A stretch of DNA of 35,162 nt from a virus (IMGVR_UViG_2859810971_000008:1-35162); one strand, 5' to 3'. Positions 1-35,162 are shown, counted from the stretch's first letter. The notes: a model not told the origin generated them from the sequence alone. Numbers and translations: made by a program.

Positions 1-1158
1 ATGCTCACCGTTAAGCAGATTGAAGCAGCAAAGCCGAAAGAAAAACCATACCGCCTTCTCGATGGTAATGGCCTGTACCTTTATGTCCCTGTATCAGGGA
101 AAAAGGTATGGCAGCTTCGCTACAAGATTGACGGTAAGGAAAAAATACTGACCGTAGGAAAATATCCACTAATGACTTTGCAGGAGACAAGAGATAAAGC
201 ATGGACCGCGAGGAAAGACATCTCGGTTGGCATCGATCCGGTAAAGGCGAAAAAGGCTTCGTCTAACAACAATTCCTTTAGTGCGATTTACAAGGAATGG
301 TACGAGCACAAGAAGCAAGTATGGTCAGTAGGGTATGCGACTGAACTTGCAAAAATGTTTGATGACGACATTTTACCTATCATCGGCGGCCTTGAAATTC
401 AGGATATTGAGCCGATGCAACTGCTGGAAGTAATCCGCAGATTTGAAGATCGCGGTGCAATGGAGCGAGCCAACAAAGCACGCAGAAGATGCGGAGAGGT
501 TTTCCGTTACGCTATTGTCACCGGAAGGGCTAAATATAACCCGGCACCTGACCTTGCTGACGCCATGAAGGGATACCGCAAGAAGAACTTCCCGTTTCTT
601 CCTGCAGACCAGATCCCGGCATTCAACAAAGCACTGGCAACATTTTCAGGAAGTATCGTATCGCTCATTGCGACCAAAGTTTTACGCTACACAGCCCTAA
701 GAACGAAAGAGCTTCGTTCCATGCAATGGAAGAACGTCGATTTTGAAAACAGGATTATCACTATCGACGCCAGTGTGATGAAGGGACGCAAGATTCATGT
801 TGTCCCGATGTCGGACCAGGTGGTTGAACTTCTCACTACGCTAATCTCCATCACCAAACCAGTATCAGAGTTTGTTTTTGCCGGGCGTAACGATAAGAAG
901 AAGCCAATCTGCGAGAACGCGGTATTGCTTGTGATCAAACAAATCGGCTATGAGGGTCTGGAAAGCGGTCACGGATTCAGGCATGAATTCAGCACGATTA
1001 TGAACGAGCACGAATGGCCCGCTGATGCTATTGAAGTGCAACTGGCACATGCCAACGGCGGATCTGTGCGCGGTATTTACAACCATGCTCAGTATCTCGA
1101 TAAGCGCAGAGAAATGATGCAGTGGTGGGCGGATTGGCTTGATGAAAAGGTGCTGTAA
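1..1158 (+). CDS. intS: Tyrosine recombinase/integrase, P4 (IntS)-type
   Basis: 385 aa ORF starting at nt 1; N-terminus MLTVKQIEAAKPKEKPYRLLDGNGLYLYV typical of P4-family integrases, C-terminal catalytic region with conserved R..H..R..Y spacing (HGFRHEF...VRGIYNHAQY). Recalled as near-identical to KplE1/CPS-53 IntS, unverified. Confidence 0.9.
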   Translation: MLTVKQIEAAKPKEKPYRLLDGNGLYLYVPVSGKKVWQLRYKIDGKEKILTVGKYPLMTLQETRDKAWTARKDISVGIDPVKAKKASSNNNSFSAIYKEWYEHKKQVWSVGYATELAKMFDDDILPIIGGLEIQDIEPMQLLEVIRRFEDRGAMERANKARRRCGEVFRYAIVTGRAKYNPAPDLADAMKGYRKKNFPFLPADQIPAFNKALATFSGSIVSLIATKVLRYTALRTKELRSMQWKNVDFENRIITIDASVMKGRKIHVVPMSDQVVELLTTLISITKPVSEFVFAGRNDKKKPICENAVLLVIKQIGYEGLESGHGFRHEFSTIMNEHEWPADAIEVQLAHANGGSVRGIYNHAQYLDKRREMMQWWADWLDEKVL

Positions 1159-1514
1159 TCCTCATATCCAACCTAAGAGATATGCACAATTTTGTGAATA
1201 AGATATTGAGAATTAGCGAAAAGTTTTATTTTGCGTATCATCAATTCAGAATACAAAGTTACATGCTAATGTTCTGCATTGGTATCTTTTGCTTATCCAT
1301 GTCTACATTATCGCCAAAAAAATAGGTTTTGTCTATCAATTATTTGAATTACTTCCATGAAATTATAACGCACTTGTAATTTTTGATTATTTTTACCTCT
1401 CAAGTGTTTTGTTTCTTCTATCTCTTTGTATTTTTAGCGAAAGTATGCCATATTGCATTCTAATATAACGTGGCGTTGTTTCTGTTTAATGATTTAAATA
1501 GTTCAACATAATAT

Positions 1515-2690
1515 TTGCTAACAAATTATATCCAAGCAAATCATATGATATTATCATTACAATATATTAGAGGAATAGCATCATTACTTGTTGTTTTATT
1601 CCACTTCAGATTCTTGCTAAATGAGCACTACTCTCAGAAAGATTTGGGTGACCTATTATTTGGGAATGGGCTGTCTGGAGTTGATATATTCTTCATATTA
1701 AGTGGATTTATCATCGTATACTCAACAAGAAAGAAGGAAGTTAATGATACTTTCTCATTCTCAATTAGAAGAATATTTAGAATATACCCATTACTAATCA
1801 CATGCTGTTGCATGTATTACATAATAAACACTCAATTTCTAACCTATGCTACAGTTGAAAACTTTAGAACCTTGCTTATTTCCATCATTCCATTAAATAT
1901 AAACTGGAATGAAGGTGCTCCATTCTTTGCCTATAATCTTTTGTACCCGGCCTGGACGATAACATATGAAATTGGTTTCTATGTTTTTTTCGGGGTATCA
2001 ATGTCTATTTCGCATAAATACAGAACAATTATCTGTTCTGTTTTTATAATCATGGTGGTCTCATTTACACAATACTATGTGAATGGAAATATATCATTTT
2101 CAGGTGATGTTAGTGCAGGGTTATTTACAGATAACTGGTTATTAGGATATACAAATGTTATTACATCTCCAATGATGTATGAATTCGTTATTGGGATGTT
2201 TCTTTCTGAAATATTTATAAACATCAACGAAAGCAAAAGTATTAAAAGGATACTTTCAAAGTATTCGCTTCAAATACTATGGATTTCATGTGGTATATCC
2301 ATAATATTATTCATTATCCAGCGACCTTATGGGCATGGATTGAATGGATTTGGGACTATGGCGATGATACTTATTGCATCATCATTAGTATATGAATACT
2401 GCAATATAACACCCAAAATAAAAATATTTAATTTCCTTGGTGAAATATCATATTCTTTATATCTAATTCACGCCGTGATACTTGCTTTGTTCTTCTATTA
2501 TAAGGCAGACCTTGCTGAAATTGGCATAACTGGTGGATTTTCTGTGTTTTTTTCCTTGGTTATTATCTCAATAACTGCATCATATCCAATATATATTCTC
2601 ATTGAAAAACCAATGATAAATATAGGCAAACGTTTAATTGACAAGAGAAATAAGAGCATTAATAAAAAAGAAACCGAAATAACAGCGTAA
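1515..2690 (+). CDS. Acyltransferase family 3 (AT3) integral membrane protein; putative O-antigen/LPS O-acetyltransferase (lysogenic conversion). Alternative start at 1545
   Basis: 391 aa, very hydrophobic with multiple predicted TM segments; N-terminal motif YIRGIASLLVVLFHF and SGVDIFFILSGFII typical of the Oac/OafA AT3 family; strongly AT-rich codon usage unlike the phage structural genes. Confidence 0.75.
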   Translation: MLTNYIQANHMILSLQYIRGIASLLVVLFHFRFLLNEHYSQKDLGDLLFGNGLSGVDIFFILSGFIIVYSTRKKEVNDTFSFSIRRIFRIYPLLITCCCMYYIINTQFLTYATVENFRTLLISIIPLNINWNEGAPFFAYNLLYPAWTITYEIGFYVFFGVSMSISHKYRTIICSVFIIMVVSFTQYYVNGNISFSGDVSAGLFTDNWLLGYTNVITSPMMYEFVIGMFLSEIFININESKSIKRILSKYSLQILWISCGISIILFIIQRPYGHGLNGFGTMAMILIASSLVYEYCNITPKIKIFNFLGEISYSLYLIHAVILALFFYYKADLAEIGITGGFSVFFSLVIISITASYPIYILIEKPMINIGKRLIDKRNKSINKKETEITA

Positions 2691-2704
2691 TAATGACAAA
2701 GTTA

Positions 2705-2729
2705 GTGCCGGATACCCCGGCACTTTTTA
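2705..2729 (+). terminator. Rho-independent terminator after the first AT3 gene
   Basis: GTGCCGG-ATACC-CCGGCAC hairpin followed by TTTTT immediately after the stop at 2688-2690. Confidence 0.5.
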
Positions 2730-4102
2730 ATCAATTTCGTAAGTGACAGTGATTATCACCTCTGCATTATTACCCAAAACATTTTGATATATATTCATAT
2801 TACCTGATAATGTAGTTGCTCCAGTAAGAGTTATATAACTACTATTTGCATCAACCCTTGGAAGTAAAGCGGTAACTGCTGTTGTTAAATTATTATAGTA
2901 GCCTGTACTTCCAACATATGCAGCTTTATTGCTTGATACATATGGTAACCCTCCAATTCTGAAACCATCTCCTGACCCAATTAAAGTTATACCAAGGTGA
3001 CATATTGCTGTTATGATATTGCCACTCCTGACATAATTTCCTTTCTGCTGATAATATGTGGCATTACCACCTACAGTCGGAATCCAAACTCCAGTTTCTA
3101 TATCACCACATGACCAGTCTTCTGCTGTTGTTAGTTTTCCAGTAACAATAAATTTACTTCCACCACCAGAATTATAAGGAACAAAAATTGGATTTATTCT
3201 TGCATAAGTGTTACCGGTCTGCTCATTAAGATCATTTCTATCAATAAGAACTTGACCATTTTCGAAGTTTGAAATCTGGCAGTCTGTTACACTCCAGTCT
3301 CTTAACTTCACATCAGCATCCATGACACCAATAAGCTTACCAGCATTACCAATTTTTTCTTTATGCATATTTACATACACATTTCTTACCGTAACAGACT
3401 GAGGGAACAGATAATTAGCAGGATTAGTTTTATCACTTAAAATAGATATTACCCAAGGTCTGTATTGAGTACTTACTTCACAATAAAATCCATCAATAAG
3501 CGTTCCAGATGCCGCTGGTCCAAGTAGTATTCCACCTGTAGAGTGATGCGCACTACCTCCAATTACTCTCCCCTTAACGCAGTTAATATAGGCAAAATAT
3601 CCTAAATCTTGATTGTCATAGGCTGACATAGCACAGTCTCTAACTGTTACTCGAGAATTTCCTCCGTCATAAGCTGAGCCATCAGTTTTCTTACCAACTA
3701 TTGATATAAAGTTACCAATAGCAACTCGACTATAAAAAGTTTTTTATAACACCCCTCAATTAAAATATCCCAGTTTTCAAACTGAGCATATATATCATAA
3801 GAGCTGGCATTCCCATAATCTATGAAATCACAACATCTTATTTTCGGCGTATAAACGGCACTTTTTATCTTTATACCACCTAATGCTCTCTCCCCACCTG
3901 TGAATCTAATGCCAGTAACGGTGTAATCGCCTTGATAGAAATTATCTGCGGTAGGATTATTTTCGTCAGAATCATCACCCAATATAATAGCAAATTCACT
4001 CCCTGAATAATTAATTGTCGCCCCCTTATTTGAATATATAGTTACAGGTCTTATAAACTCCAAAGAATTACTTATTAGATACTCTCCATAAGGAAAAAAA
4101 TC
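2727..4102 (-). pseudogene. Tailspike/tail-fibre-like receptor-binding protein remnant (beta-helix-like composition), frameshifted and lacking a start codon
   Basis: Two ORF fragments (3698..4063 and 2727..3629) in different frames; the lower frame stays open upstream to 3743, so the break is in the A/T run at 3735-3746. The upper fragment has only a TTG start and is open upstream to a stop at 4103-4105. Gly/Asn/Thr/Ser-rich repetitive sequence typical of tailspike beta-helices. AT-rich. Confidence 0.4.
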
Positions 4103-4455
4103 TCAACTGGTGGTGAGTACTTTGGTCTGGAGTTTACGTAATTCATAATATTGATTACACCAACATCATAGATAATCGCCACCTTCTGGCGAGGAGCTCC
4201 TGATGCAATTAATCGCCAGGCCTACGCCCATTATTCAGGGGTAAATTTTGGACGGAGCCCCCAATTCCATCCTCAATTCTCCCTCGCACTGAGGAGTAGT
4301 AAGTGCAATTATTTAAAAAATCGCAAACAGAATATTATCATTTATTCTTGCATTCTGTTAATTAAAACCACACATAAAAACGTTGATACTTGATAAGTAA
4401 GTAGAGTATTATTAATGGTTTTAATAACGAACCTTTTAATCATGAGAAGCCTCAA

Positions 4456-5481
4456 ATGACTAGTACCAATAACATAACAAGAAAAAAAATGGATGGAGTA
4501 ACAATCTTAAGATTTATAGCTGCTTTTTATGTGTTTATTTTTCACATTAACATGAGAGTCCCCGTTAATTTTGGAGAGCTTATTAATAAAACCATTAGCA
4601 ATGGCGTCATTGGCATGAGTATTTTCTTCATGCTTTCTGGTTTTGTTTTGACTTATAATTACTATGGTTCCTTGTCAAACAATTACTTCAGGAAGCGAAT
4701 AGCAAGAATATTTCCAGCCTATTTATTTTGTGGGCTTTTAACCCTCCCATTTTTGTTATCCAGCGATGCAAGCTTTTTAAAAATGATTGCAAGCATATTC
4801 TTGTTTGTTACTGGAATGCAATCATGGATTTATCAGACCTTCGATTTTTGGAATTTTAGCGGTACCTGGTCAATATCAGTGGAATTGTTTTTTTATGCCC
4901 TGTTTCCATTTTTGATAAAAAACATCAACAAAAACAATGTAATTTACGTTTTACTTTTTTCATATTTATCTTCAGCATTATTAATCCCATTATCTGATAT
5001 AATTCAGGGACCTGTAGTTTGGTCCGTATATTACGCAACTCCAATATACAGGTTACCAGAATTTGTGGTGGGCGTCTGTATCGCAATACTTTTTTTAAAT
5101 GGCTATCGTGTTAACCATTATACATGGCTATTAAGCATTTTATTATTTCTGTATGCTACCACCCAGCAAAACAATAACTCCATGGGGGTGAACTATCTCA
5201 CAATTCCTGCGATATCAATTATGTTATTGCACCTGGCAAAAATCAACATCAAAAACAATATTGCAAACAGAGCGATCATTTACTTTGGAGATATAAGTTA
5301 TTCGTTTTATTTGATGCAATTACCTATATTATATTACCTGGATCATAATAAAAACTCATTTATTCTTAACTATGGTCTTTTTAGCTGGCTTGTACTTTTT
5401 GTTATTAATACTGCAATGGCATCATTATCTTATCACTTTCTGGAGAAGAACGATAAAATCAGAAAAATAATCACATCCTGA
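4456..5481 (+). CDS. Acyltransferase family 3 (AT3) integral membrane protein; putative O-antigen O-acetyltransferase (Oac-like)
   Basis: 341 aa; motifs RFIAAFYVFIFH, FFMLSGFVLTY, multiple TM segments; size and motifs resemble phage-borne Oac-type O-acetylases; AT-rich. Confidence 0.8.
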   Translation: MTSTNNITRKKMDGVTILRFIAAFYVFIFHINMRVPVNFGELINKTISNGVIGMSIFFMLSGFVLTYNYYGSLSNNYFRKRIARIFPAYLFCGLLTLPFLLSSDASFLKMIASIFLFVTGMQSWIYQTFDFWNFSGTWSISVELFFYALFPFLIKNINKNNVIYVLLFSYLSSALLIPLSDIIQGPVVWSVYYATPIYRLPEFVVGVCIAILFLNGYRVNHYTWLLSILLFLYATTQQNNNSMGVNYLTIPAISIMLLHLAKINIKNNIANRAIIYFGDISYSFYLMQLPILYYLDHNKNSFILNYGLFSWLVLFVINTAMASLSYHFLEKNDKIRKIITS

Positions 5482-5482
5482 T

Positions 5483-5508
5483 TTATTAGGGGGACCTCCC
5501 CCTAATAA
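5483..5508. terminator. Perfect inverted-repeat hairpin between convergent genes (possible bidirectional terminator)
   Basis: TTATTAGGGGG-ACC-TCCCCCTAATAA: 11-bp perfect stem between the AT3 stop (5481) and the tfa stop (5523). No clear U-tract on either side. Confidence 0.35.
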
Positions 5509-5522
5509 TACACCACATAATT

Positions 5523-5933
5523 TCAACGTATTATCTCTGGTCTTTCAGGCCAGGTTATTTCTGGCACTAAAGATAAATCCACTGACATTAAACTATTAAC
5601 ATATTCCTTCCATAATAAAAGATTGCCCTTGTTATTTTCACTTATAATACCGAGTAACAAATCTGACTGCCAGTTCATAATTAAACTATTAGCACTATCC
5701 AGCAGACACTGTCTTTCATTCTCTGCCTCACGAAGTAATTCATCATGTGTTTTTGGCGGCTGCGTAGGTGACGAAAGCTTTCCCTTATCATAGAACCAAC
5801 CAATTCTTACATTATCGGATACAGGTATAACTAACGCATTAGTTGGTTGCCAGGCACTCTCACCATCCCATACAGCAATATTGGTAACAACACCATTTTC
5901 AATAACGGCATAGTTCATCATGCATACTCCCAA
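5523..5933 (-). CDS. Tail fibre assembly protein (Tfa family)
   Basis: 136 aa; N-terminus [19 protein letters not shown]... characteristic of lambda/Mu-type tail fibre assembly chaperones; directly downstream of the tail fibre gene. Confidence 0.8.
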   Translation of the reverse strand: MGVCMMNYAVIENGVVTNIAVWDGESAWQPTNALVIPVSDNVRIGWFYDKGKLSSPTQPPKTHDELLREAENERQCLLDSANSLIMNWQSDLLLGIISENNKGNLLLWKEYVNSLMSVDLSLVPEITWPERPEIIR

Positions 5934-6933
5934 ATGATTGCAATACCAGCCATTCCGCTACCTCCGGCACGCTGCTGCGTCGCTCCACCGTAAACACAGG
6001 CGCCACCGCCGCCGCCGCCATGGCCATTAGCATTAATACCTTCGCCTACAATGGCTTGCGACCCAGCCCCCGCACCAAGGATTGAATCGCCTCCAGGCCC
6101 ACCAATCGCCAGACTGCCAGAAAACCGAATGCCTGGTGAGTTATAACCACTTCCGGATCCGATAATATTGGCACCTGTAAATCCCGGTTCAGTATATGCC
6201 CCATACGGACCAACAACCCCAGGAGCAGTGCCTTCAGCAAGAACATTCCCACCAAGACCACCTTTGGCAATTATGGTATTGCCGAAAGAGGTTGCTCCCC
6301 CGGGAGCACCAACCGACGCACTTGCACCAGTGCCACCATATCCTATTGTCACAGTAGTTACGGTTGGATTATCCACGCGAGCTTTAACATACTCCCCGGA
6401 CATCCCCCGCCACCACAAGCAGCATTATTGGGATAACCGACCTGACAACCACCACCGGCCCCACCACCACCAACAATTTCAACAATAATAAATCTTGTGC
6501 CTTTTGTCGGAGTGTATGTACCTGAGCTTTTAAACACCTGACACTGTATAAGCCTCCCGGAGCCATCTCCCAAACCAAGATTTTCGAGAGCCGTTTTCAC
6601 CGTGCCGTCCGATTTAATATCACCAAACGGATTCTTGCGGCTCAGGTATTCAACAGCAAACCCCGATCCCAGCAATTCAACAAAACCGGGCAGATCACCA
6701 TTATCAAGCACATCCCGTTGCGTTTTATCACTTACAAACTGGGCCAGAGCTGCAGCAATAAAGCTGGCCTGCCGAATAACCTTATTGACTTGCGCACTGG
6801 AGGCTTTCCCTGCTGTAAATCCGGATAAAAGCGCGGGCAACGCTTCCCATTCCTCCTGCGATATAACATTGGCATTTCGATCCGTTGCAAACGCTTTAAA
6901 GTCATTTTTCGCCATCAGAGTAATACTCCCCAT
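5918..6933 (-). CDS. Tail fibre protein, glycine-rich; interrupted by a 1-nt frameshift (two ORF fragments 6358..6933 and 5918..6418)
   Basis: N-terminal fragment [33 protein letters not shown]... is a conserved tail-fibre N-terminus; the C-terminal fragment is Gly-rich. The frames join if the 5-C run at about 6404-6408 were 6 nt. Confidence 0.7.
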
Positions 6934-7595
6934 GCTCCTACATCAAAACCACTGATGAATTCGTTATCCATATCAAAACCAAAAAATTTTGAGCCTTCCG
7001 ATGGGGTTTCCACCGAAGGTGTTTCAATGCCACCCGCCCATACCCCGGCAGCTTTTACTGTGAGATACCCCTGTTTAATTGCCGCAATTAACTCACGCGA
7101 TACATCTGAAATATCAGTATCAGGAAAGACCCAGACCGATATCGTCATGTCCTGGTTATCGACTATCTGCATTCGCAGCCCGGATCCTGCTGTTGCAGCG
7201 TCAAGAATTGCCGGAAGCGAATCATTCCGTCCATCCCAGTTATTAATCGCAATCTTCGCTTTAAGAATGACACGATAAGTTTCATCGCTGAGGTACATGT
7301 ATCCGGAATCAGGATCGTATGGTCCCTGCCATACCCCCTGATCATATCCAAGCCCGTCGGTATCCCAGCTGAAATAGACACCTGAGATAGGCTGGCTGAC
7401 AACACGGCTACGTCCGATCCACAATCCCAGAATGTCAAGTTGCACACCAACCGCAGAGTCAATATCAAATGCAGTAATCAGCCCTCTGGTGGCAGCCGCA
7501 ACATCAATAAGCGGCCGGGTCATCAGATCAACATGCGCAAGAAATTTAGGTTTGGTGGCGTGGTAGTTCGTGATTAGTTCGGTGTATTTGCTCAT
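6915..7595 (-). CDS. Tail/baseplate protein (P2 gpI / Mu gp48-like, DUF2313-type)
   Basis: 226 aa ORF between baseplate J and the tail fibre gene, the conserved position of gpI/gp48-like proteins. Family assignment by position and recalled sequence character. Confidence 0.55.
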
Positions 7596-7605
7596 GACTC
7601 CACCG

Positions 7606-8790
7606 TTATAACGATATTTTCCGGGGTACAGGACGCAGATTCGTTGTATCTGATATCAATGTTTGATGACGACAAAGCCCCGGGGATTTCCCAATCGTCA
7701 GTTCCTGAATATCGTAATAGCGTGCATTCCCGCCACTCACCACGCCAAGATTCGCCGGTGAGTAAATGCGACTTAAAAGGACCGAATCACCAATCGTCAA
7801 ACTATTGATATAGTCGGAAATAGCCTGCTGGATCTGCTGCCCTATCTGTGAGGTATAACCCGTAAAAACTTTTAATTTAATCCGGGCATAAACAGGCACA
7901 TCACTGGAACGCGAGAATTTGATTACATGGGGATTGCCGTATTTATCCGGAACCGTAACGGATGTTGTACCGTGAGTGGCTGTCCCCTGGCCTTTATTCC
8001 CTCTGATAGCCTGAGCAATATCCGTCACATCACCGCCATCCACAATTACAGCAACAGAGTGTGGCGGTAACCCGTTACCGTCCTCCGAACCAGTATCGTT
8101 TTCATAGAGTTTGTGGCGGGTTACACCGGTAACATTAGAAACAGCACCATCCAGTGCTTCAAATGGGGTTATTGATGGCAACGCAACACTTTGCGACTGG
8201 CGGATACGTAACTCAGCATCAGTTTCTGCCGGAGAGCCAACAGTAGCCGCAGCAGGATTAGTTACCGAAACCCAGCCACGGGTTGGCGTATTAATTTCAG
8301 TGATAGTTCCAGCCAGCGCCGCCACTGCACCACTGACGGAACATGTTGCGGTCGCCATCACTGTACCATCCACGCCGACCACCACTGAAGCAGGCAAACG
8401 CCATATCACATTATTACTGTCTTTCACGCTGCCATTAATGATGGTTGTTCCGGCAGTTCCTGTAAGAAGCAAATCAACCGTAGAGTTCGTCGCGCCTTTA
8501 CGTGAAATACCATTTATTTTCACGTTACTGGTCAGTGCAGCCCCATAGCCGGTTGCCGGTGAAAAACAGTTGTAGACAGTTATCGCCATATTATTGGCAT
8601 CATGAATCGCCAGCGCCATCAGAGCCACCATCTGGCCGTCTTTGCTGTCCGGTTCGAGGTAGGCATCACTGCCATAAATCTGCTGAAAATAGCTAATCAG
8701 GGTGCTGAGTATCGTCTGATAATCAGGCGCACTGATCCCCTCCGCGGTTACCTTTGCAGATAAACCGAGAGAATCAAGGTTCAGAGCCAT
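7606..8790 (-). CDS. Baseplate J-like protein (P2 gpJ / Mu gp47 family)
   Basis: 394 aa; position between the gp46/W-like and gpI-like genes; size and sequence character typical of baseplate J proteins. Confidence 0.8.
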   Translation of the reverse strand: MALNLDSLGLSAKVTAEGISAPDYQTILSTLISYFQQIYGSDAYLEPDSKDGQMVALMALAIHDANNMAITVYNCFSPATGYGAALTSNVKINGISRKGATNSTVDLLLTGTAGTTIINGSVKDSNNVIWRLPASVVVGVDGTVMATATCSVSGAVAALAGTITEINTPTRGWVSVTNPAAATVGSPAETDAELRIRQSQSVALPSITPFEALDGAVSNVTGVTRHKLYENDTGSEDGNGLPPHSVAVIVDGGDVTDIAQAIRGNKGQGTATHGTTSVTVPDKYGNPHVIKFSRSSDVPVYARIKLKVFTGYTSQIGQQIQQAISDYINSLTIGDSVLLSRIYSPANLGVVSGGNARYYDIQELTIGKSPGLCRHQTLISDTTNLRPVPRKISL

Positions 8791-9143
8791 TACGCCTCCG
8801 ATGTAACAGTCGTTATTCCATAGAGAGTGTCGATTTCAGCGGAAAACATGACACGTCGGGTCGTGGTATCCACCGTCGTATTGAAAGAGAGGATTGATTT
8901 AACGCCCTGCGTTTCGAGGATGCGCTTACGGATCGCCAGGTTGTAAGTTTCTGGTTTTTGCCTGCCCAGCACGGACTGGATCCACGGTGTTCCCTCTGTG
9001 GTATCAAGAAACCATTGCCCATACCACAATTCGAATCGCGTTTTCACAGCCTGCGCCACGGCCTCAGGCGAGTTAATCAGCCAGGTGTCATCACCGCTGC
9101 CAAAGGTGTAATCGCCATCGGCGTCTTCACGTCTGTATCGCAT
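8790..9143 (-). CDS. Baseplate wedge protein (GP46 / gpW-like)
   Basis: 117 aa ORF immediately upstream of baseplate J with overlapping stop/start, the standard gpW/gp46 slot. Confidence 0.6.
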   Translation of the reverse strand: MRYRREDADGDYTFGSGDDTWLINSPEAVAQAVKTRFELWYGQWFLDTTEGTPWIQSVLGRQKPETYNLAIRKRILETQGVKSILSFNTTVDTTTRRVMFSAEIDTLYGITTVTSEA

Positions 9144-9894
9144 CAGTTTACCCCGTCGGTACTGCTTCCACCACGCTGAACACCACCATGAGTGTGTGTA
9201 TCATCGATTGGCTTGCCATTAGCCTTCACGCTCCCCAAAAACTCAACAGCACCAGTGATTTTTGAAGCCACACCAGAAACCACAGACCCCACCATGCCCC
9301 CCATCCAGGTTAACAGGCCATGAATGGTTACTTTCTCAGAAAAATCAGCCAGAGGGGCAACCACATCAAGCCCCCGGGAGCAACAATTTTAATTTTCCTG
9401 GTATCAGGATTAAGCTCAAAATAGGTGCTGCCGTCATCACTACGCAACTGTGTGGCACTGGTATTAATACCGCTAATCTTCCTTGCCTGCGACTGGGGAC
9501 CGACAATACAAAACGCATCCGATAAATCATGCATTCTGTCATCGACCGGCTCCTGTATCCCGCCACTCTGCCACCAGAAATCAATACAACGATCGGCAAA
9601 AATCACCAAACATTCATCACCGGCTTTTACCGGAAAAGTCAACGTGCAGCCTCCGCCGCGCGGGAATACCACTGGCACATCCACCAGCAATGGGTAATTT
9701 TTGGTAATGCGGTTGCCGTCGTTATCAATTTCAACGTAACGGATAGCAGGCTGTACAACCGCCGTCACCGCATCAGGAGCGAATGACTGAACAATGCCAG
9801 GCAAGGCGACACGGATCTGGTTCTTTGTTGTTTCCCGTTCAGATTTGAATGTTTCAGCAAGGTCGCCGCTGCGGGTCTGGTCAGATACTGCCAT
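9143..9894 (-). CDS. Baseplate assembly/spike protein V (Mu gp45-like); interrupted by a 1-nt frameshift (fragments 9328..9894 and 9143..9364)
   Basis: 188 aa N-terminal fragment plus 73 aa C-terminal fragment in another frame; the frames join (…KIVAPGGLDVVAPLADFSEK…) if the 5-C run at about 9371-9375 were 6 nt. GGAG Shine-Dalgarno ahead of the ATG at 9894. Confidence 0.6.
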
Positions 9895-9912
9895 TTAGTA
9901 GGCTCCAGAAAG

Positions 9913-9936
9913 CAAAAAACCCGCCGGGTGGCGGGT
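9913..9936 (-). terminator. Rho-independent terminator after the moron gene
   Basis: Minus-strand ACCCGCC-ACCC-GGCGGGT hairpin followed by TTTTTTGCTTT, 18 nt after the stop of the 79-aa gene. Confidence 0.6.
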
Positions 9937-9953
9937 TCATTATTGAAGTTTCA

Positions 9954-30834: not shown

Positions 30835-31294
30835 GTTTCACTCCTGCTTTGGCTAGTCTGTAAACACCAACAAGGCGCTCTGCGAACGCCCTGTTATTTG
30901 CTGCGGCTACCACTAATCCCTCAGGTGAATCAGGGTGTCGAATCTCTTCTTTTTCCTGGTATTTCTTACGACGTTTTGGCATAATTACTCCTGTGGATTG
31001 ATCCAGTCTTTCTACATCAGGCCTCGAAGAATTCGCCGTTCTTCGGGCTTTTTCTTTTGTCAGCATTCTGGCTACTTGCTTAGCCAGTTCCGCCAACTCC
31101 TCGTCTTCAACACCCCATTCAAGAACAGCCAGAAGCATTCCCATTTTTGGGATGAAGCTGTCTTTCCATCGCGAAATTTGCGATTCATTAATCCCTAACG
31201 CGTCGGCAACCTTTCGCTGACCACGTACAGCAATTCGATTCAGGATGTTGCTTGTAATTGCATTCGCTTTCTTGCGAGTACTTGTAAGTTGCAT
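30821..31294 (-). CDS. cII: CII-like transcriptional activator
   Basis: Contains ...GINESQISRWKDSFIPKMGMLLAVLEWGV..., resembling lambda CII (…SQISRWKRDWIPKFSMLLAVLEWGV…). Start chosen at the ATG at 31292-31294 (MQLTS) behind AAGGAAA. Confidence 0.65.
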   Translation of the reverse strand: MQLTSTRKKANAITSNILNRIAVRGQRKVADALGINESQISRWKDSFIPKMGMLLAVLEWGVEDEELAELAKQVARMLTKEKARRTANSSRPDVERLDQSTGVIMPKRRKKYQEKEEIRHPDSPEGLVVAAANNRAFAERLVGVYRLAKAGVKHGRR

Positions 31295-31363
31295 ATGTAA
31301 GTATTTCCTTAGATAACAATTGATTGAATGTATGCAAATAAATGCATACACCATAGGTGTGGC

Positions 31364-31395: not shown

Positions 31396-31413
31396 TGTAA
31401 GAGCGGGAATGTC

Positions 31414-31629
31414 TTAAGCGGCTTTGTGTTCCGGCGGGAACACGTCATCAAGACTGACTTTTGCGCCTAACTTGTTTAGGCACTCAACAAGAGCACGGCA
31501 TGTTTTAAGGTCTGGGAAGCGACGACCAGATTCCCAATGTCCGATAGCTCCCTGTGTGCATCCAACTGCCTTAGCAAGTGTTGTTTGAGAGATATTCAGT
31601 GACTCTCGATATTTTCGTAGTTTGCTCAT
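31414..31629 (-). CDS. cro: Cro-like HTH repressor (XRE family)
   Basis: 71 aa from the ATG at 31627-31629 (MSKLRKYRESLNISQTTLAKAVGCTQGAIGHWESG...) preceded by GGAGGG; divergent from cI. Confidence 0.6.
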   Translation of the reverse strand: MSKLRKYRESLNISQTTLAKAVGCTQGAIGHWESGRRFPDLKTCRALVECLNKLGAKVSLDDVFPPEHKAA

Positions 31630-31649
31630 ATGCCCTCCATAGTAACCAT

Positions 31650-31732
31650 GAAACAATAATACGATATGTACTTTTAGAATGCAAACAAAAAAATACATCT
31701 TGTGCATGGATGGTTTTAGTACAGAGCGTAAT
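31650..31732. promoter_or_regulatory. Right operator region: pR (-35 TTGCAT at 31679-31684, -10 TATTAT at 31656-31661, minus strand) with two operator-like dyads
   Basis: Dyads AATACGATATGTACT (31658-31672) and AGTACAGAGCGTAAT (31718-31732) share half-sites with the pL dyad; 17-nt spacer between the -35 and -10. Confidence 0.5.
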
Positions 31733-31741
31733 AATAAGGGT

Positions 31742-32401
31742 ATGAAAATGAAATGGTATGAACTGGCTAGATCCAGAATGAAAGAGCTCGGCATAACTCA
31801 AGAGAAGTTAGCTGAAGAGCTTGGTATGACGCAGGGTGGAATTGGTCACTGGTTGCGCGGATCTCGTCATCCATCTCTTGACGAGATTGGTGTGGTGTTT
31901 AAATACCTTGGTATTGATAACGTCTCATTCAACCACGACGGTACATTTTCACCTGTTGGCGAATACTCATCTGCCCCCGTTAAAAAACAATATGAGTACC
32001 CTGTTTTTTCTCATGTTCAGGCCGGGATGTTCTCGCCTGAGCTTAGAACCTTTACCAAAGGTGATGCGGAGAGATGGGTCAGCACAACCAAAAAAGCCAG
32101 TGATTGTGCGTTCTGGCTTGAAGTTGAAGGTAATTCCATGACCGCGCCAACAGGATCCAAGCCAAGCTTTCCTGACGGGATGTTAATTCTCGTTGACCCT
32201 GAGCAGGCTGTTGAGCTAGGTGATTTCTGCATAGCCAGACTTGGTGGTGACGAGTTTACCTTCAAGAAACTGATCAGGGATAGCGGTCAGGTGTTCCTAC
32301 AGCCACTAAACCCGCAATATCCAATGATTCCATGCAATGATAGCTGTTCCGTAGTAGGGAAAGTTATCGCCAGCCAGTGGCCTGAAGAGACATTTAGTTA
32401 A
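31742..32401 (+). CDS. cI: CI repressor (LexA-like S24 peptidase C-terminal domain); hybrid with a lambda-like C-terminus
   Basis: C-terminal ~100 aa (…[93 protein letters not shown]) match the lambda CI C-terminal domain from memory; the N-terminal HTH domain differs. Start at MKMKWYEL, since the track's upstream ATG lies in pR. Confidence 0.9.
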
Positions 32402-32433
32402 CAGCCTCACAACTCTAAAACACACAACAATAA

Positions 32434-32461
32434 CCCGACCTTAGCGTCGGGTTTTCTTTTT
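32434..32461 (+). terminator. Rho-independent terminator after cI
   Basis: CCCGAC-CTTAGC-GTCGGG hairpin followed by TTTTCTTTTT; no rex genes between cI and pL. Confidence 0.7.
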
Positions 32462-32526
32462 CCAAAATATAAACCCATTAAATACAAAGCGTTATAAAAA
32501 ACTAATTATATTTAGAACATTTTGTA

Positions 32527-32562
32527 TTGACTCGATAAAGTACAAATCGTACTATTTAGCCA
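32527..32562 (+). promoter_or_regulatory. pL promoter with overlapping operator dyad
   Basis: -35 TTGACT (32527-32532), 17-nt spacer, -10 TACTAT (32550-32555); the transcript would begin near ATCAGCAGG as in lambda pL; dyad AGTACAAATCGTACT at 32539-32553 overlaps the -10. Confidence 0.6.
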
Positions 32563-32593
32563 TCAGCAGGACGTGCTAACCACCATGAAGGTG

Positions 32594-32625
32594 ACGCTCT
32601 TAAAAATTAAGCCCTGAAGAAGGGC
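32594..32625 (+). promoter_or_regulatory. nutL (boxA CGCTCTTAA + boxB GCCCTGAAGAAGGGC)
   Basis: Exact lambda-like boxA at 32594-32602 and boxB hairpin at 32611-32625, downstream of pL and upstream of N. Confidence 0.8.
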
Positions 32626-32783
32626 AGCATTCAAAGCAGAAGGCTTTGGTGTGTGTGATACGAAACGAAGCATTGGCCGGAAGTGCGAATCCGGATTAGC
32701 TGCCAATGTGCCATTGCGAGGTGTTTTCGTTCAGGACTACGACTCCCACACACAACCAAAGCTAACTGACAGGAGAATCCAGA

Positions 32784-32878
32784 TGAATGCACAAACACGC
32801 CGCCGCGAACGTCGCGCAGAGAAACAGGCTCAATGGAAAGCAGCAAATCCCCTGTTGGTTGGGGTAAACGCAAAATGA
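32784..32878 (+). pseudogene. N: Antiterminator N, truncated after codon 31 by the IS600-like insertion
   Basis: MNAQTRRRERRAEKQAQWKAANPLLVGVNAK matches the lambda N arginine-rich boxB-binding N-terminus as recalled; reading frame stops at the TGA of the IS terminal TGAGGTG. Confidence 0.8.
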
Positions 32879-32918
32879 GGTGTACTGGCAATAGCGGACA
32901 CTACCATTTGTTCTTTTT

Positions 32919-33737
32919 TTAAGCAGCCATCTGATGATATTTTTCCCTGAAGGCTGCCGGGGAGATATTCCCCAGACGAGAGTGACGACGCTGACGATTG
33001 TAGAAAATCTCAATGTATTCCCGTATTACTGAGATGGCCTCATCCCGGCTCTTAAAACGATAGTGGCTCAGGCTTTCATTTTTCAGCGTTCCCCAGAAGC
33101 TTTCCATCGGAGCGTTGTCGTAACAGTTACCTTTACGCGACATTGATGTTTTCAGACCAAACTGCTCCTGTATGACCCGGTAATCGTATGCGCAGTACTG
33201 TGAACCTCGATCAGAGTGGTGGATTAGCCCGGCAGGTGGGCGCTGGCTCCTGAGCGCCATAAACAGGGCTTTACCTGTCAGCTCTTTTGTCATGCGCTCT
33301 CCCATGGCGTAGCCGACAATTTCGCACGTATAAACATCTTTGATGCCAGCGAGGTACAACCATCCCTCCTGTGTGGCAACATACGTCAGGTCCGCCACCC
33401 AGACCTGATTTGGTGCTGTAGGAGCGAACGTCTGGTTCAGCAGATTTGGCGCAACTGGCAGATTGTGGTTCGGGTTCGTAGTCGCTCTGAACTTGCGTTT
33501 CTGCTTACAGCGTAGCCTCAGCTCCTTACGAAGACGTGCCAGTCGGTCACGACCAACGATGATGCCATTCTCTGCCAGCTCCGTCTGGAGCCGCCGGGTT
33601 CCATATGTTTCGCGAGTGCGGATATGTGCCACCTTAATCTCCAGTTTTAGCCGCTCATCACTTTGTTTTCTGTCTGAGGGTTCATGCTGTACCCAGTTGT
33701 AATAACCGCTCCTGGATACACCAAATACCTGACACAT
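32919..33737 (-). CDS. IS600-like transposase OrfB
   Basis: 272 aa IS3-family DDE transposase (…HSDRGSQYCAYDYR…YDNAPMESFWGTLK…). Confidence 0.8.
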   Translation of the reverse strand: MCQVFGVSRSGYYNWVQHEPSDRKQSDERLKLEIKVAHIRTRETYGTRRLQTELAENGIIVGRDRLARLRKELRLRCKQKRKFRATTNPNHNLPVAPNLLNQTFAPTAPNQVWVADLTYVATQEGWLYLAGIKDVYTCEIVGYAMGERMTKELTGKALFMALRSQRPPAGLIHHSDRGSQYCAYDYRVIQEQFGLKTSMSRKGNCYDNAPMESFWGTLKNESLSHYRFKSRDEAISVIREYIEIFYNRQRRHSRLGNISPAAFREKYHQMAA

Positions 33738-33772
33738 CGCTTCAATGGGAAATTGTTGTCGCCATTGTTCGA

Positions 33773-34075
33773 TTAACGCGTATTTTTCAGCGACTCCTGT
33801 GCAAAATACGCTGTTGCTTTTTTTAATATATCGCGCTCAAGGCGAGCTTCATTTAACGCCTTACGCAGTTGCAGAATTTCAGATTCCAGTTCAGCCACCG
33901 TGCGGGAACCAGGAGTACCGAGCCCTTTTCTGGCGGCGGTAACCCATTGTCCTAAAGTGCCTTCAGGAAGGGATAATCGGGAAGCGCCTTCACTGATCGA
34001 AAGTTGATTTTCAAGAACCGTTCTGACAGCTTCGGCTTTGAACTCTTTAGAGTAACGTTGGGTTTTTCTGCTCAT
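33773..34075 (-). CDS. IS600-like transposase OrfA
   Basis: 100 aa; MSRKTQRYSKEFKAEAVRTVLENQLSISEGASRLSLPEGTLGQWV... HTH plus leucine zipper typical of IS3 OrfA. Confidence 0.8.
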   Translation of the reverse strand: MSRKTQRYSKEFKAEAVRTVLENQLSISEGASRLSLPEGTLGQWVTAARKGLGTPGSRTVAELESEILQLRKALNEARLERDILKKATAYFAQESLKNTR

Positions 34076-34186
34076 TATTAGCTCCTTCTGATGCCATTCT
34101 ATTTCAGGAAGGAGTGTCCGTTAAACTCAGGCTACCTCAGTGCACCCGCCATCGATATCAGCATGGGTAGACAGAAAGATGAGAGA

Positions 34187-34277
34187 GCCGGCGCAAGCCG
34201 GTTTTTTATTTGAATTCACCGACGCCGCTTAATGCGGATTTCTTTTATCTGAACTCGCTACGGCGAGTTTTGTTTTA
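34187..34277 (+). terminator. Three tandem terminator-like hairpins
   Basis: CCGGC-GCAA-GCCGG + TTTTTTATTT (34188-34210); GCCGC-TTAAT-GCGG + ATTTCTTTTA; CTCGC-TACG-GCGAG + TTTTGTTTTA. Confidence 0.5.
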
Positions 34278-34289
34278 TGGAGATGATAA

Positions 34290-34457
34290 ATGCACTTCCG
34301 AGTAACAGGTGAATGGAATGGAGAACCATTCAACAGAGTTATCGAAGCAGAGGACATCAACGACTGCTATAACCACTGGATGATATGGGCGCAGATAGCG
34401 CATGCAGACGTAACCAATATTCGAATTGAAGAACTGAAAGAACACCAAACCGCCTGA
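34290..34457 (+). CDS. Hypothetical small protein (55 aa), unknown function
   Basis: Below the ORF-track cutoff; ATG at 34290 preceded by GGAGATGA; translation MHFRVTGEWNGEPFNRVIEAEDINDCYNHWMIWAQIAHADVTNIRIEELKEHQTA; stop sits within a terminator hairpin. Confidence 0.4.
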   Translation: MHFRVTGEWNGEPFNRVIEAEDINDCYNHWMIWAQIAHADVTNIRIEELKEHQTA

Positions 34458-34470
34458 TGGCGGTTTTTTA
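34450..34470 (+). terminator. Rho-independent terminator
   Basis: CCGCC-TGAT-GGCGG followed by TTTTTTATT. Confidence 0.6.
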
Positions 34471-34483
34471 TTGGAGACAAGAA

Positions 34484-34827
34484 ATGTCAGATTTGGCTAT
34501 GAAGATTTTGAAATGGCAATCGACTGGCGATGTCGGCATCAGTAGCGCAACTCTTGCCTCAATCGCATGTGGACTGAAAAAGAATATCTATGGTCATCAC
34601 TTCGGCGCTCCCCATGACGAGCAGACTTCCGGCGATGCGTTGCACTTGTTGAGCAGATTCCAGAAATCAGAGATTCATTCGACAAGGTTGCAAAGCGCGT
34701 TCCGGCATTCAAAGGCATCCTCAACGAATGGGATTCTCTCGTTGCTCTGTTGAAGTCTGAAATGAAGATACACGGAAACAAAGCACCAGAGACTTACAGA
34801 AGAATCAGCGAGCTACGCAAGGACTAA
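34484..34827 (+). CDS. Hypothetical protein, apparently frameshifted (about 113 aa if repaired)
   Basis: ATG at 34484 behind GGAGACAA; frame 1 decays into R/S-rich sequence while the +2 frame encodes protein-like sequence (…IRDSFDKVAKRVPAFKGILNEWDSLVALLKSEMKIHGNKAPETYRRISELRKD) to a TAA at 34825-34827. Break lies between about 34617 and 34680. Confidence 0.35.
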
Positions 34828-34892
34828 CCATGAAATAACACCGCCTCACACTCGATGAGTCCTGTTCATTTCTCAAGATATCCAGACCTATC

Positions 34893-34918
34893 ATCGCCGC
34901 ATCAATGCGGTTTTTTAT
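34893..34918 (+). terminator. Rho-independent terminator upstream of torI
   Basis: CGCCGCAT-CAA-TGCGG hairpin followed by TTTTTTATT. Confidence 0.6.
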
Positions 34919-34961
34919 TACCTGATTTGCAGGTTCGATTCCCTATTCGGAGATAGCACTC

Positions 34962-35162
34962 ATGCAACACGAACTACAGCCTGATTCACTGGTTGATTTG
35001 AAATTCATCATGGCCGATACTGGCTTCGGTAAAACCTTCATCTATGCTCGGATTAAGTCCGGAGACCTTCCAAAAGCCAAAGTTATCCACGGGCGAGCAA
35101 GATGGTTATATCGTGACCATTGTGAATTCAAAAATAAGCTCTTAAGCCGCGCCAATGGGTAA
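34962..35162 (+). CDS. torI: Excisionase / recombination directionality factor, TorI (AlpA/Xis-like winged helix)
   Basis: 66 aa; MQHELQPDSLVDLKFIMADTGFGKTFIYARIKSGDLPKAKVIHGRARWLYRDH... recalled as essentially the E. coli K-12 KplE1 TorI sequence, unverified. Stop is the last codon of the window. Confidence 0.75.
   Translation: MQHELQPDSLVDLKFIMADTGFGKTFIYARIKSGDLPKAKVIHGRARWLYRDHCEFKNKLLSRANG

Follow-up and report, generated by a model that had tools for sequence, protein, structure and literature searches.

A defective mosaic prophage with a KplE1-type IntS/TorI module, likely inserted at a secondary site in yihU of a Shigella boydii-type chromosome

We consider it likely that the 35,162-nt stretch of DNA analysed here (the window) is a defective mosaic prophage, in which a lambdoid early and lysis region and a SEN34-like contractile-tail morphogenesis block are combined with a KplE1-type recombination module. 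This degree of confidence applies to the whole of the best explanation, in which the defective mosaic would have entered yihU as a secondary site, become locked in and decayed later. The window corresponds to CP026810.1:4025701-4060862, where the int and torI matches lie 35,162 bp apart and the loci equal the window exactly, and the source chromosome is of Shigella boydii type.

Results

An IntS/TorI module bounds the element

The window runs from the start codon of int (base 1) to the stop codon of torI (last base), so that the att sites lie just outside it; these were read from the source contig. Including the att arms, the element is 35.4 kb long, and intS and torI enclose, in this order, cargo genes, a morphogenesis block, a lysis cassette and an immunity region. 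The 35,162-nt window contains no tRNA gene, and an Rfam scan of it returned 0 matches. The recombination module consists of the following features.

1-1158, plus strand: intS, intact ORF for a P4-family tyrosine integrase of 385 aa, reading into the element (Pfam and K-12 alignment)
34290-34753, plus strand: two small conserved ORFs 5' of torI (shared context; PHROG families of unknown function)
34962-35162, plus strand: torI, recombination directionality factor (RDF) of 66 aa, reading out of the element (K-12 alignment)

The integrase has Arm-DNA-bind_3, Phage_int_M and Phage_integrase domains (Pfam), is identical to K-12 IntS at 381/384 amino acids (99%), and its gene is 96-98% identical in nucleotide sequence to genes that carry the annotation intS in over 2,400 complete E. 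coli genomes. Its changes relative to K-12 (A63T, L242Q, S282I and E385L) are inside the range of functional phage alleles. The excisionase matches K-12 TorI at 65/66 amino acids (98%), the sole difference being D29A, and many E. coli have this exact variant beside dsdC, at the argW locus. The alignments suggested in an earlier note on this DNA thus place both proteins beyond family-level similarity.

The 167 nt directly upstream of the window hold the P' arm of attL and the promoter of intS, and K-12 has an identical sequence in the ~100 nt that precede the intS start codon. Directly downstream of the window follow the P arm of attR (82 nt) and the crossover, and the sequence 3' of torI equals the K-12 attR arm up to CTGCAGGGG, bar one substitution. 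By sequence, these conserved P and P' arms contain putative arm-type IntS sites, TorI sites and the intS promoter. A 55-aa ORF and a 114-aa ORF (89-98 aa here) precede torI in the comparison loci L011-L018, and such small ORFs are common to many IntS/TorI prophages. The module therefore has an IntS ortholog, a TorI ortholog, int at attL and the RDF at attR, together with both arms; it is neither integrated at the 3' end of the tRNA-Arg(CCU) gene argW nor bounded by the duplicated 16-nt core CTGCAGGGGACACCAT.

The earlier note had placed integrase and excisionase at opposite ends, with int reading inward and torI outward, and had proposed a comparison of synteny with CPS-53, Sf6 and HK620. The placement stands: the arrangement is that of KplE1/CPS-53, and the order xis-attP-int appears in the HK620 and Sf6 phage maps. 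The layout is, however, not the unusual one that the note took it for. It is a published and widely conserved module, known from KplE1, HK620, Sf6, CUS-3 and many prophages (PMC2951348, PMC3509656), and it is also present in the 42-kb, intact-looking argW-dsdC prophage of E. coli T28R. The opposite-end layout is thus established in the literature and adds nothing by itself. In the free phage the order is torI-attP-intS, and integration consequently puts intS by attL and torI by attR.

The element splits yihU without loss or gain of bases

The element is flanked by the two halves of yihU, the gene for 3-sulfolactaldehyde reductase. Upstream lie yiiD-dtd-yihY-yihX-csqR-yihV and the yihU 5' fragment, and downstream the yihU 3' fragment, yihT, yihS, yihR, yihQ and yihP, both in K-12 order. 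The insertion accounts for the yihU break in the sulfoquinovose operon of this lineage. The earlier note had suggested looking for argW or another tRNA gene on the int side, where the yihU 5' fragment was found instead, and a duplicated att core beyond torI, where only GG proved to be common to the two junctions. Its use of att duplication as a criterion would have wrongly rejected a true IntS/TorI module.

At attL, GATGTTCCGGTAGG is joined to ACACCATTT, and at attR, GATGTCTGCAGGGG is joined to CCGTACTTC; the junction 28-mers of the yihU insertion are GATGTTCCGGTAGGACACCATTTATCAG and GATGTCTGCAGGGGCCGTACTTCTGCAA. The part of the core that remains is ACACCAT alone in attL and CTGCAGGGG alone in attR. 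No argW sequence is present at the attL junction, where the yihU' ORF comes as close as 46 nt to the start codon of intS. When the two yihU halves are joined they restore K-12 yihU with 0 bases lost or gained, and the joined prophage ends give a perfect 249-nt HK620/Sf6-type attP, which is colinear with those of HK620, Sf6 and HK633, equal to them in length and almost the same in sequence, and the core of which is the canonical argW sequence. The yihU site is identical to the core at 3/15 positions, which is low even for a secondary site, and shares with it a GATGT motif 8 nt left of the crossover.

From these junctions we infer, as the best reading, a conservative secondary-site insertion into yihU mediated by IntS. 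A phage with a canonical argW-type attP would have entered the secondary yihU site by a conservative, reciprocal, IntS-catalysed exchange, which would yield hybrid ends that each carry half of the tRNA-derived core, with no repeated core. It is extremely unlikely that the prophage instead integrated at argW in the ordinary way and was moved beside the yih genes by a later chromosomal rearrangement. In favour of such an event, IS shuffling has been extensive in Shigella genomes, copies of IS1, IS600 and IS911 abound in the source chromosome, and at this locus a sister strain has an IS1-linked deletion. However, a rearrangement would leave argW-derived sequence left of the core, whereas no argW, yfdC or dsdC sequence and no IS was found at either junction, both junctions fall at one yihU nucleotide and one att-core nucleotide, and yihU and attP are rebuilt exactly.

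The crossover homology of just 2 nt would also be typical of an illegitimate, microhomology-mediated join, by which a circular phage genome could have been inserted independently of the integrase. Against this, the break on the phage side fell within the 16 nt of the att core, in a genome of ~40 kb, for which the chance is ~4 in 10,000, and a perfectly conservative exchange on both partners is a hallmark of tyrosine recombinases and not of end-joining; we regard such a join as very improbable.

As a product of IntS-mediated exchange at yihU, attL and attR would differ throughout the presumed 6-8-bp overlap, and each would have lost one core-type binding site. Judging from work on lambda secondary sites and saf mutants, a mismatched overlap and lost core-type sites would make excision very inefficient, and the prophage is now probably locked in at yihU.

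The junction is confined to one clonal lineage

The yihU::attL junction occurs in five assemblies, including that of the hybrid-sequenced S. boydii 600080, and these represent one clonal lineage in which intS is identical (5/5). It was found in 0 of 5,426 complete E. coli genomes and had 0 matches in GTDB species representatives, in which all 9 matches to the P' arm adjoin argW sequence. The attR junction was seen in a single assembly. The sister strain S. boydii 600080 has lost the attR end and has an IS1-linked deletion at the prophage locus, and exact-protein look-ups for a second attR (with TorI, cI, sheath and portal) gave, for the yihU context, the source contig only. Literature searches on CP026810.1, on yihU with prophage or integrase, and on secondary attachment sites for argW returned nothing relevant.

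A different account of the site choice would be an IntS allele of altered or relaxed specificity that prefers yihU. The protein has four amino acid differences from K-12 IntS, while the proteins of K-12, T28R, E1V33, CUS-3 and HZ41 are identical despite 33-41 nucleotide differences. Yet L242Q is common to HK620, Sf6, HK633 and VT2phi_272, position 385 is variable, and 4-8 residues separate functional phage alleles from K-12; moreover, the attP core is canonical for argW and the junction is confined to a single clonal lineage. This makes altered specificity very unlikely compared with the use of yihU as a secondary site by an ordinary IntS. An excess of amino acid change in IntS that looked significant and could have pointed to altered specificity (5/20 unique changes nonsynonymous, versus 0/42 for three argW alleles) was gone once HK620, Sf6, HK633 and VT2phi_272 were added.

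Cargo genes and a mosaic boundary follow intS

The region at 1159-5520 behind intS is of low GC content (32-37% at 1545-5481) and, together with the end of intS, has the following features.

1075-1158, plus strand: mosaic boundary, the last 84 nt of intS moving with the downstream cargo (comparison with other prophages)
1545-2690, plus strand: first Acyl_transf_3 gene (Pfam)
2727-4063, minus strand: broken 445-aa ORF of unknown function (NRZ14408 comparison)
4456-5481, plus strand: second Acyl_transf_3 gene (Pfam)

E. coli NRZ14408 and its relatives match the window from position 1075 on, where they have an annotated, N-terminally truncated remnant of 84 nt, and the terminal 78-84 nt of intS are also found in phages 434, mEp332 and ev099. 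By map comparison, the cargo stands where K-12 CPS-53 has yfdGHI (gtr) and Sf6 has oac. The first acyltransferase has only distant phage homologues (at most 40% amino acid identity), which are annotated as exopolysaccharide production proteins, and Sf6 is not among the phage records that match it. The 445-aa ORF, with 0 Pfam and 0 PHROG matches, has lost its frame through one missing nucleotide in the T-run at 3743, a deletion also present in S. boydii 600080. Another prophage with the same cargo (L045) has true Mu-type baseplate families (Phage_Mu_Gp45, Phage_Mu_Gp48 and GP46).

A complete SEN34-like morphogenesis block

A complete contractile-tail morphogenesis block spans 5523-25823 on the minus strand.

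5523-17365, minus strand: tail and baseplate genes (96-100% amino acid identity to genes of intact E. coli prophages; Pfam)
17295-25823, minus strand: head and packaging genes (amino acid identity, Pfam, PHROG)

The tail module comprises genes for tail-fibre assembly, tail fibre, DUF2612 wedge, Baseplate_J, sheath initiator, spike, baseplate hub, plug, a Dit-like protein, tape measure, chaperone, DUF3277 tube, DUF3383 sheath and tail terminator. The tail region is 96.7% identical in nucleotide sequence to vB_EcoM-611R5/606R2/683R1 and ~82% identical to Salmonella phage SEN34. In the head module are a head protein, a Neck1-type connector, DUF4054, the DUF2184 major capsid protein, a cement protein, DUF2213, a Mu-F-like minor head protein, the DUF1073 portal, TerL and TerS. 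The colinear order TerS-TerL-DUF1073 portal-MuF-DUF2213-cement-DUF2184 capsid, followed by DUF3383 sheath-DUF3277 tube and then Baseplate_J-DUF2612-fibre, is that of SEN34-like temperate myoviruses.

The earlier note had described a Mu/P2-like contractile tail with lambda-like lysis and immunity. The tail is contractile, and the lambda-type lysis genes and cI/cro/cII are present, but the likeness to Mu and P2 did not hold up. The sheath belongs to the E217_gp31/DUF3383 family and the tube to Phage_Tube_PhiTE (Pfam), and by these families the tail is SEN34/E217/PhiTE-like. Sheath, tube and baseplate families of Mu (Gp44-48) and P2 (FI/FII, gpV/W/J/I) were not found in the window, where the echo of Mu/P2 is limited to the Baseplate_J and Phage_Mu_F domains.

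The early region is truncated at two IS elements

26184-26741, minus strand: KilA-N protein (Pfam)
26910-27347, minus strand: Rz of a lambda-type lysis cassette (Pfam, T28R comparison)
27344-27820, minus strand: GH24 lysozyme of the lysis cassette (Pfam, T28R comparison)
27804-28127, minus strand: holin of the lysis cassette (Pfam, T28R comparison)
28128-28723: late-promoter region, on the Q-remnant side of the lysis cassette
28724-28949, minus strand: remnant of antiterminator Q, C-terminal ~75 of 172 codons (CUS-3 comparison)
28950-30198, minus strand: IS911-like element of the IS3 family, 1249 bp (orfA and orfB Pfam, inverted repeats)
30196-30834, minus strand: O, truncated near codon 234 of 295 (Phage_rep_O; tblastn of T28R O)
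30821-31294, minus strand: cII (Phage_CII)
31414-31629, minus strand: cro (HTH_3)
31706-32401, plus strand: cI, LexA-like repressor (HTH_3 and Peptidase_S24)
32783-32875, plus strand: antiterminator N, first ~31 codons, cut by IS600 (L039 match)
32876-34139, minus strand: IS600, 1264 bp (matching E. coli annotation, inverted repeats)

The lysis proteins are 95-100% identical to those of T28R. The Q remnant has 98.9% nucleotide identity to the Q region of CUS-3, and its translation corresponds to CUS-3 Q from residue 98 to the end. The IS911-like element, with 27-nt terminal inverted repeats beginning TGAAGTGGTCAACAAAAACTGGCC, joins this truncated Q to the truncated O, and its flanks correspond to genes that lie apart from each other in T28R and CUS-3; between Q and O one would expect the nin genes and the replication helicase/P gene, but these are absent. 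IS600 has no target duplication (its flanks read aaa and gtg). The N assignment follows from the match of 32757-32874 to positions 5416-5533 of L039, in which an N36-family gene starts at 5442. From N to ~700 nt 5' of torI everything is absent (cIII, kil, gam and the recombination genes), and homology resumes at 34236, beyond IS600; L012 and L039 are intact relatives. TerS has an in-frame stop at 25608-25610 (YVL*RL, versus YVLNRL in relatives) of the substitution type.

As the earlier note had stated, the element retains, unlike K-12 CPS-53, a morphogenesis block, lysis genes and an immunity region. It is not the largely intact prophage proposed there: the two IS elements truncate Q, N and O, TerS is interrupted, and the nin, replication and early-left genes are missing. 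A viable, inducible phage with IS passengers has hardly any probability in our view. In favour of it, intact relatives have morphogenesis and lysis genes 96-100% identical to those of the element, cI, cro, intS and torI are intact, and most frameshifts are probably homopolymer errors (see below); but Q consists of its last ~75 codons, N of its first ~31, O lacks its C-terminus, TerS has a stop, and the helicase/P, nin and recombination genes are all gone. Following its insertion in yihU, the trapped prophage would have decayed through deletions at the IS911-like element and IS600 and a TerS nonsense mutation, and through the IS1-linked deletion in the sister strain. What remains would be a cryptic element that interrupts the sulfoquinovose operon.

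Most frameshifts are probably not gene decay

Five 1-nt deletions affect the tail-fibre, Baseplate_J, spike, DUF2213 and Mu-F genes, and a sixth lies at 18842, just 5' of the STY1053 ORF. All six fall in C/G runs, and the three that lie within the region shared with S. boydii 600080 are absent there, as are two further deletions, one within the cargo and the other in yihY of the host. Because of their location in C/G runs and the absence of the comparable ones from the hybrid-assembled sister, we treat them as probable assembly errors: most of the apparent frameshifts are probably homopolymer errors of sequencing or assembly, and widespread frameshift decay of the structural genes was rejected. 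The CP026810.1 record is thus a caution against reading assembly frameshifts as decay.

Discussion

The element resembles KplE1/CPS-53 of K-12 beyond the near-identity of IntS and TorI. In both, intS lies inward at the attL end with its promoter inside attL, torI lies outward at the attR end, the P and P' arms are nearly identical, and surface-polysaccharide-modifying cargo directly follows the 3' end of intS; both elements are defective. However, CPS-53 is 10.2 kb long and sits in argW with a duplicated 16-nt core, whereas the present element, 35.4 kb long with its arms, sits in yihU with none; it keeps morphogenesis, lysis and cI/cro/cII genes, and acyltransferases replace gtrABS (yfdGHI). 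With HK620, Sf6 and CUS-3 (Lederbergvirus) it shares the near-identical 249-nt xis(torI)-attP-int segment, with CUS-3 also the Q-to-lysis region (98.9% identity), and with Sf6 the placement of an acyl-modification gene, there an O-antigen acetylase, right after int. These three are P22-like podoviruses at argW, unlike the present element with its SEN34-like contractile tail and non-tRNA site.

The order of head, tail and baseplate genes is shared with the T28R argW-dsdC prophage (CP049353), vB_EcoM-611R5/606R2 and SEN34, at ~96-97% nucleotide identity of the shared structural genes to the E. coli elements and ~82% to SEN34. The T28R prophage also has intS and torI at opposite ends, but it is ~42 kb long, lies at argW, is intact in its N-side, replication, nin and Q regions and lacks the acyltransferase cargo. 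The vB_EcoM records and SEN34 differ in their early regions. The closest parallel to the insertion itself is found in lysogens of lambda at secondary attachment sites, which likewise show conservative Int-mediated insertion with little core homology, disruption of a host gene and non-identical hybrid att sites from which poor excision is expected. Those lysogens were selected in the laboratory in attB-deleted hosts, whereas the yihU insertion is natural, fixed in a Shigella lineage and attributable to a tRNA-targeting integrase of the P4 family.

The useful part of these results is the yihU location, which would be a clean, naturally fixed case of secondary-site integration by a tRNA-specific integrase. 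Curators and prophage-boundary tools search for a tRNA and direct repeats, both of which can be missing from a prophage with a perfect IntS/TorI module, and the junction offers a testable estimate of the IntS strand-exchange point. A broader proposal, which we put forward as speculative and on balance rather unlikely, is that a tRNA-targeting integrase of the P4 family has in yihU a natural pseudo-attB. The junction would then mark one position of IntS strand exchange within CTGCAGG^GG^ACACCAT, and for capture of a protein-coding gene by IntS a single good half-site of the core type (GATGT) and a 2-nt homology in the overlap would be enough. With heterologous attL and attR, domestication of the prophage would be irreversible, and losing sulfoquinovose catabolism may have been tolerated or even favoured in this Shigella boydii clade.

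The IntS/TorI module and its relatives

The integrase and excisionase genes occupy the two ends of the window:
1-1158, + strand: intS, 385 aa; its ATG is the first base of the window
34962-35162, + strand: torI, 66 aa; its stop codon ends the window

The integrase is identical to K-12 IntS at 381 of 384 amino acids and the 66-aa protein to K-12 TorI at 65 of 66. In nucleotide sequence, the integrase gene is 96-98% identical to intS as annotated in over 2,400 complete E. coli genomes. This confirms the IntS-type integrase and TorI-like excisionase proposed in the earlier note, and the identities mark the similarity as orthology rather than family-level resemblance. Neither tRNA genes nor Rfam families were found when the window was scanned. 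The intS genes of K-12, T28R, Escherichia sp. E1V33, CUS-3 and HZ41 (loci L001, L003, L026, L054 and L059) show 33-41 nt differences and encode the same 385-aa protein, which points to purifying selection of unusual strength on the integrase.

The placement of the two genes at opposite ends had been considered unusual, but both the module and this layout have been described before. K-12 has the gene order argW - intS - ... - torI - pawZ, where pawZ is a 15-nt duplicate of the argW 3' end. The 16-nt duplicated core of KplE1 (CTGCAGGGGACACCAT), the intS promoter within attL that is a prominent feature of the module, and the conservation of the module in HK620, Sf6, CUS-3 and the APEC-O1 and UTI89 prophages have been published (Panis et al., PMC2951348; PMC3509656). 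The HK620 and Sf6 records have the phage-form order hkaC(torI) - attP core - int, which places the two genes at opposite prophage ends once integrated. At least 20 different phages of the phage collection encode IntS; most are P22-like, joined by HK633 and Stx2 phage VT2phi_272. The ~42 kb prophage between argW and dsdC in E. coli T28R also has intS and torI at its ends; its structural genes are the same as those of the window and its early genes are complete.

Insertion in yihU

Exact IntS and TorI protein matches lie exactly 35,162 bp apart on the Shigella boydii-type chromosome CP026810.1 (4.53 Mb; IS1, IS600 and IS911 abundant), whose loci are identical to both window ends. Here the prophage is flanked by the two halves of yihU and nothing is duplicated, contrary to the suggestion of argW at the integrase side and a duplicated core past torI. 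Upstream of int are yiiD(fabY), dtd, yihY, yihX, csqR, yihV and a yihU 5' fragment of 161 codons; torI is followed by the yihU 3' part, yihT, yihS, yihR, yihQ and yihP, as in the K-12 gene order. In the yihU 3' part (L013, downstream of the window, 6736 onward, ~1.6 kb past the window end), K-12 homology extends only to nt 818 of 897 and a 400-aa yihU'-yihT fusion ORF was called, another small lesion in the operon besides the insertion itself.

The IntS allele is indexed in 43 collection blocks, of which 24 contigs were read, giving five displayed places, all with the yihU context. Five assemblies share an identical attL junction. S. boydii 600080 (CP049606.1, clade 1a; PMC7545283) has the same allele in the same context, and its prophage ends at an IS1 terminus at window position 9996, followed by yihN-yihM-yihL-bipA (L049 15442-16588). 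This IS1-linked deletion took away attR, 25 kb at the right side of the prophage and the genes from yihU' to ompL/yihO.

The junctions and their parental sequences are as follows:
attL (source): ...GATGTTCCGGTAGG / ACACCATTTATCAG...
attR (source): ...AGATGTCTGCAGGGG / CCGTACTTCTGC...
intact K-12 yihU: GATGTTCCGGTAGGCCGTACTTCTGC
canonical attP: GATGTCTGCAGGGGACACCATTTATCAG

When rejoined, the two yihU fragments give K-12 yihU with zero bases gained or lost. Joining the post-torI to the pre-intS sequence gives a 249-nt attP that includes the complete core and is equal in length and nearly identical to the attP of HK620, Sf6 and HK633. As both yihU and attP are rebuilt exactly, the sequences show that a canonical attP recombined with yihU reciprocally and conservatively, and they place the phage-side crossover inside the 16-nt core. 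The tRNA-derived core is split without duplication (CTGCAGGGG at attR, ACACCAT at attL). Crossover homology between attP and yihU is GG only, with 3 of 15 in-register core matches, and a GATGT motif lies 8 nt left of the crossover in both.

The attL junction was absent from all 5,426 of 5,426 complete E. coli genomes, where no match spans it and alignments to the argW-type attL start exactly at GGACACCA. Among GTDB species representatives, the junction was not found, and the P' arm had nine matches, all preceded by argW sequence, although in one of these (the 521-bp contig L029) only 7 nt of argW are visible. Literature searches on yihU insertion or an IntS secondary site returned nothing.

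Integration mechanism and excision

IntS-mediated integration at a secondary site is the best explanation for the insertion in this Shigella boydii lineage: IntS probably catalysed the conservative exchange between the canonical attP of the phage and yihU. The phage genome could instead have been joined into yihU independently of the integrase, but such a join is seldom conservative on both partners and its chance of landing in the core is ~4 in 10,000, which makes this very improbable. A move from argW by rearrangement was rejected, as argW sequence would be expected beside the core and none is there.

For IntS-mediated integration, the position of cleavage can be considered. The two strand exchanges of a tyrosine recombinase are 6-8 bp apart and depend on homology in the overlap, a rule established for lambda Int with saf mutants and secondary-site lysogens. 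By this rule, one of the cleavage positions probably lies at the yihU junction. One reading of AGATGTC-TGCAGGG-GACACCA is a pair of imperfect inverted half-sites separated by a 7-bp spacer, which would put a candidate cleavage site at GG/GA. Whichever overlap is considered, attL and attR are now different along its whole length, and one core half-site is missing from each, so excision is expected to be very inefficient. The yihU' fragment and intS are co-oriented, like argW and intS in K-12. The autoregulated intS promoter is probably intact, as K-12 has the identical sequence over the ~100 nt that precede the intS ATG.

Structural, lysis, immunity and cargo modules

Two segments follow intS:
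1159-5520: low-GC cargo with two Acyl_transf_3 genes and a 445-aa ORF
5523-25823: structural block, contractile-tail morphogenesis

Nucleotide identity of the structural block is 96.7% with the records of phages vB_EcoM-611R5, 606R2 and 683R1; with Salmonella phage SEN34 it is lower, about 82%. The block's head families in Pfam are DUF1073 portal, Mu-F, DUF2213 and DUF2184 capsid; its tail families are DUF3383/E217 sheath, PhiTE tube, Pam3_gp18, Baseplate_J and DUF2612. The tail is thus contractile as the earlier note had it, but its sheath and tube families are not those of Mu or P2. The description of lysis and immunity as lambda-like held, with lambda S-type holin, GH24 lysozyme and Rz, and cI (S24 domain), cro and cII. 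Between the spike and baseplate-hub genes, window 9954-10657 is variable among relatives: it contains a 79-aa DUF4282 membrane-protein ORF and a 136-aa ORF (PHROG 3443), and relatives have a 241-aa ORF, or 243- and 142-aa ORFs. The vB_EcoM-611R5 record (ON470588.1, L002) ends in a host-type yfhH-like regulator, pgpC and tadA (40486-42739) and appears to be a predicted prophage plus chromosomal flank, not a packaged genome.

The 445-aa cargo ORF matched no Pfam or PHROG profile; part of it resembles a G7C-like tailspike gene (66% nt). The cargo is very widespread (L020 12001-16408; L045-L053), its exact second acyltransferase occurring in 3,925 collection blocks. In E. coli its usual place is next to ybhB/bioA (lambda att region), where in many E. 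coli it is preceded by an 84-nt intS 3' remnant; the attached tail module varies, being Mu-like in L045 and SEN34-like in L047 and L052, and these prophages have a lambda-type int/xis at the far end. The final 84 nt of intS (window 1075-1158) behave as mosaic boundary sequence: E. coli prophages with another integrase retain them, orphaned, ahead of the cargo, and they are also present in phages 434, lambda hybrids, mEp332, PhiR70_1 and ev099.

Probable assembly errors and decay

Single-base C/G-run deletions were found at these positions:
2709, 6403-6405, 7677-7682, 9370, 18842, 21510, 21943
L048 2124: host yihY, split by the deletion

Six lie in the structural block and five of these break genes (6403-6405, 7677-7682, 9370, 21510 and 21943; tail-fibre, Baseplate_J, spike, DUF2213 and Mu-F genes). 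The 15.5 kb shared with the hybrid assembly of S. boydii 600080 contain 4 SNPs between the two and five C/G-run deletions in the source, one in yihY, all five absent from CP049606. The source record thus probably contains uncorrected long-read errors, and the six structural-block deletions are probable assembly errors. A 1-nt deletion in a T-run of the 445-aa cargo ORF is also present in S. boydii 600080, which identifies it as real. The TerS gene has an in-frame stop at codon 72 (25608-25610), a position that encodes Asn in relatives; the change is a base substitution and differs in kind from the homopolymer indels.

Two IS elements adjoin further lesions:
28950-30198: IS911-like element, Q remnant on one side, truncated O on the other
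32876-34139: IS600, after ~codon 31 of N; without target duplication

Only the last ~75 codons of Q remain, in a region 98.9% identical to CUS-3, and O is cut near codon 234 of 295. The genes between O and Q in T28R (nin genes and helicase/P gene) are missing. The IS911-like element thus lies between genes that are non-adjacent in related phages, and GAT on both sides (28947-28949 and 30199-30201) resembles a 3-bp target duplication. The matching flanks could have arisen by chance (1 in 64); otherwise they indicate that the element inserted after the deletion. Homology to related prophages restarts only at 34236, past IS600, so the recombination genes and cIII, kil and gam have been lost. With these losses and the TerS stop, the element is not largely intact, as first thought possible, but a larger and clearly defective relative of CPS-53.

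The interpretation thus stands for the module, the layout and the relationship to CPS-53, but not for the layout being unusual, the argW site, the core duplication, intactness or a Mu/P2 tail. The one unexpected feature, read from the junction sequences, is the precise insertion in yihU without core duplication.
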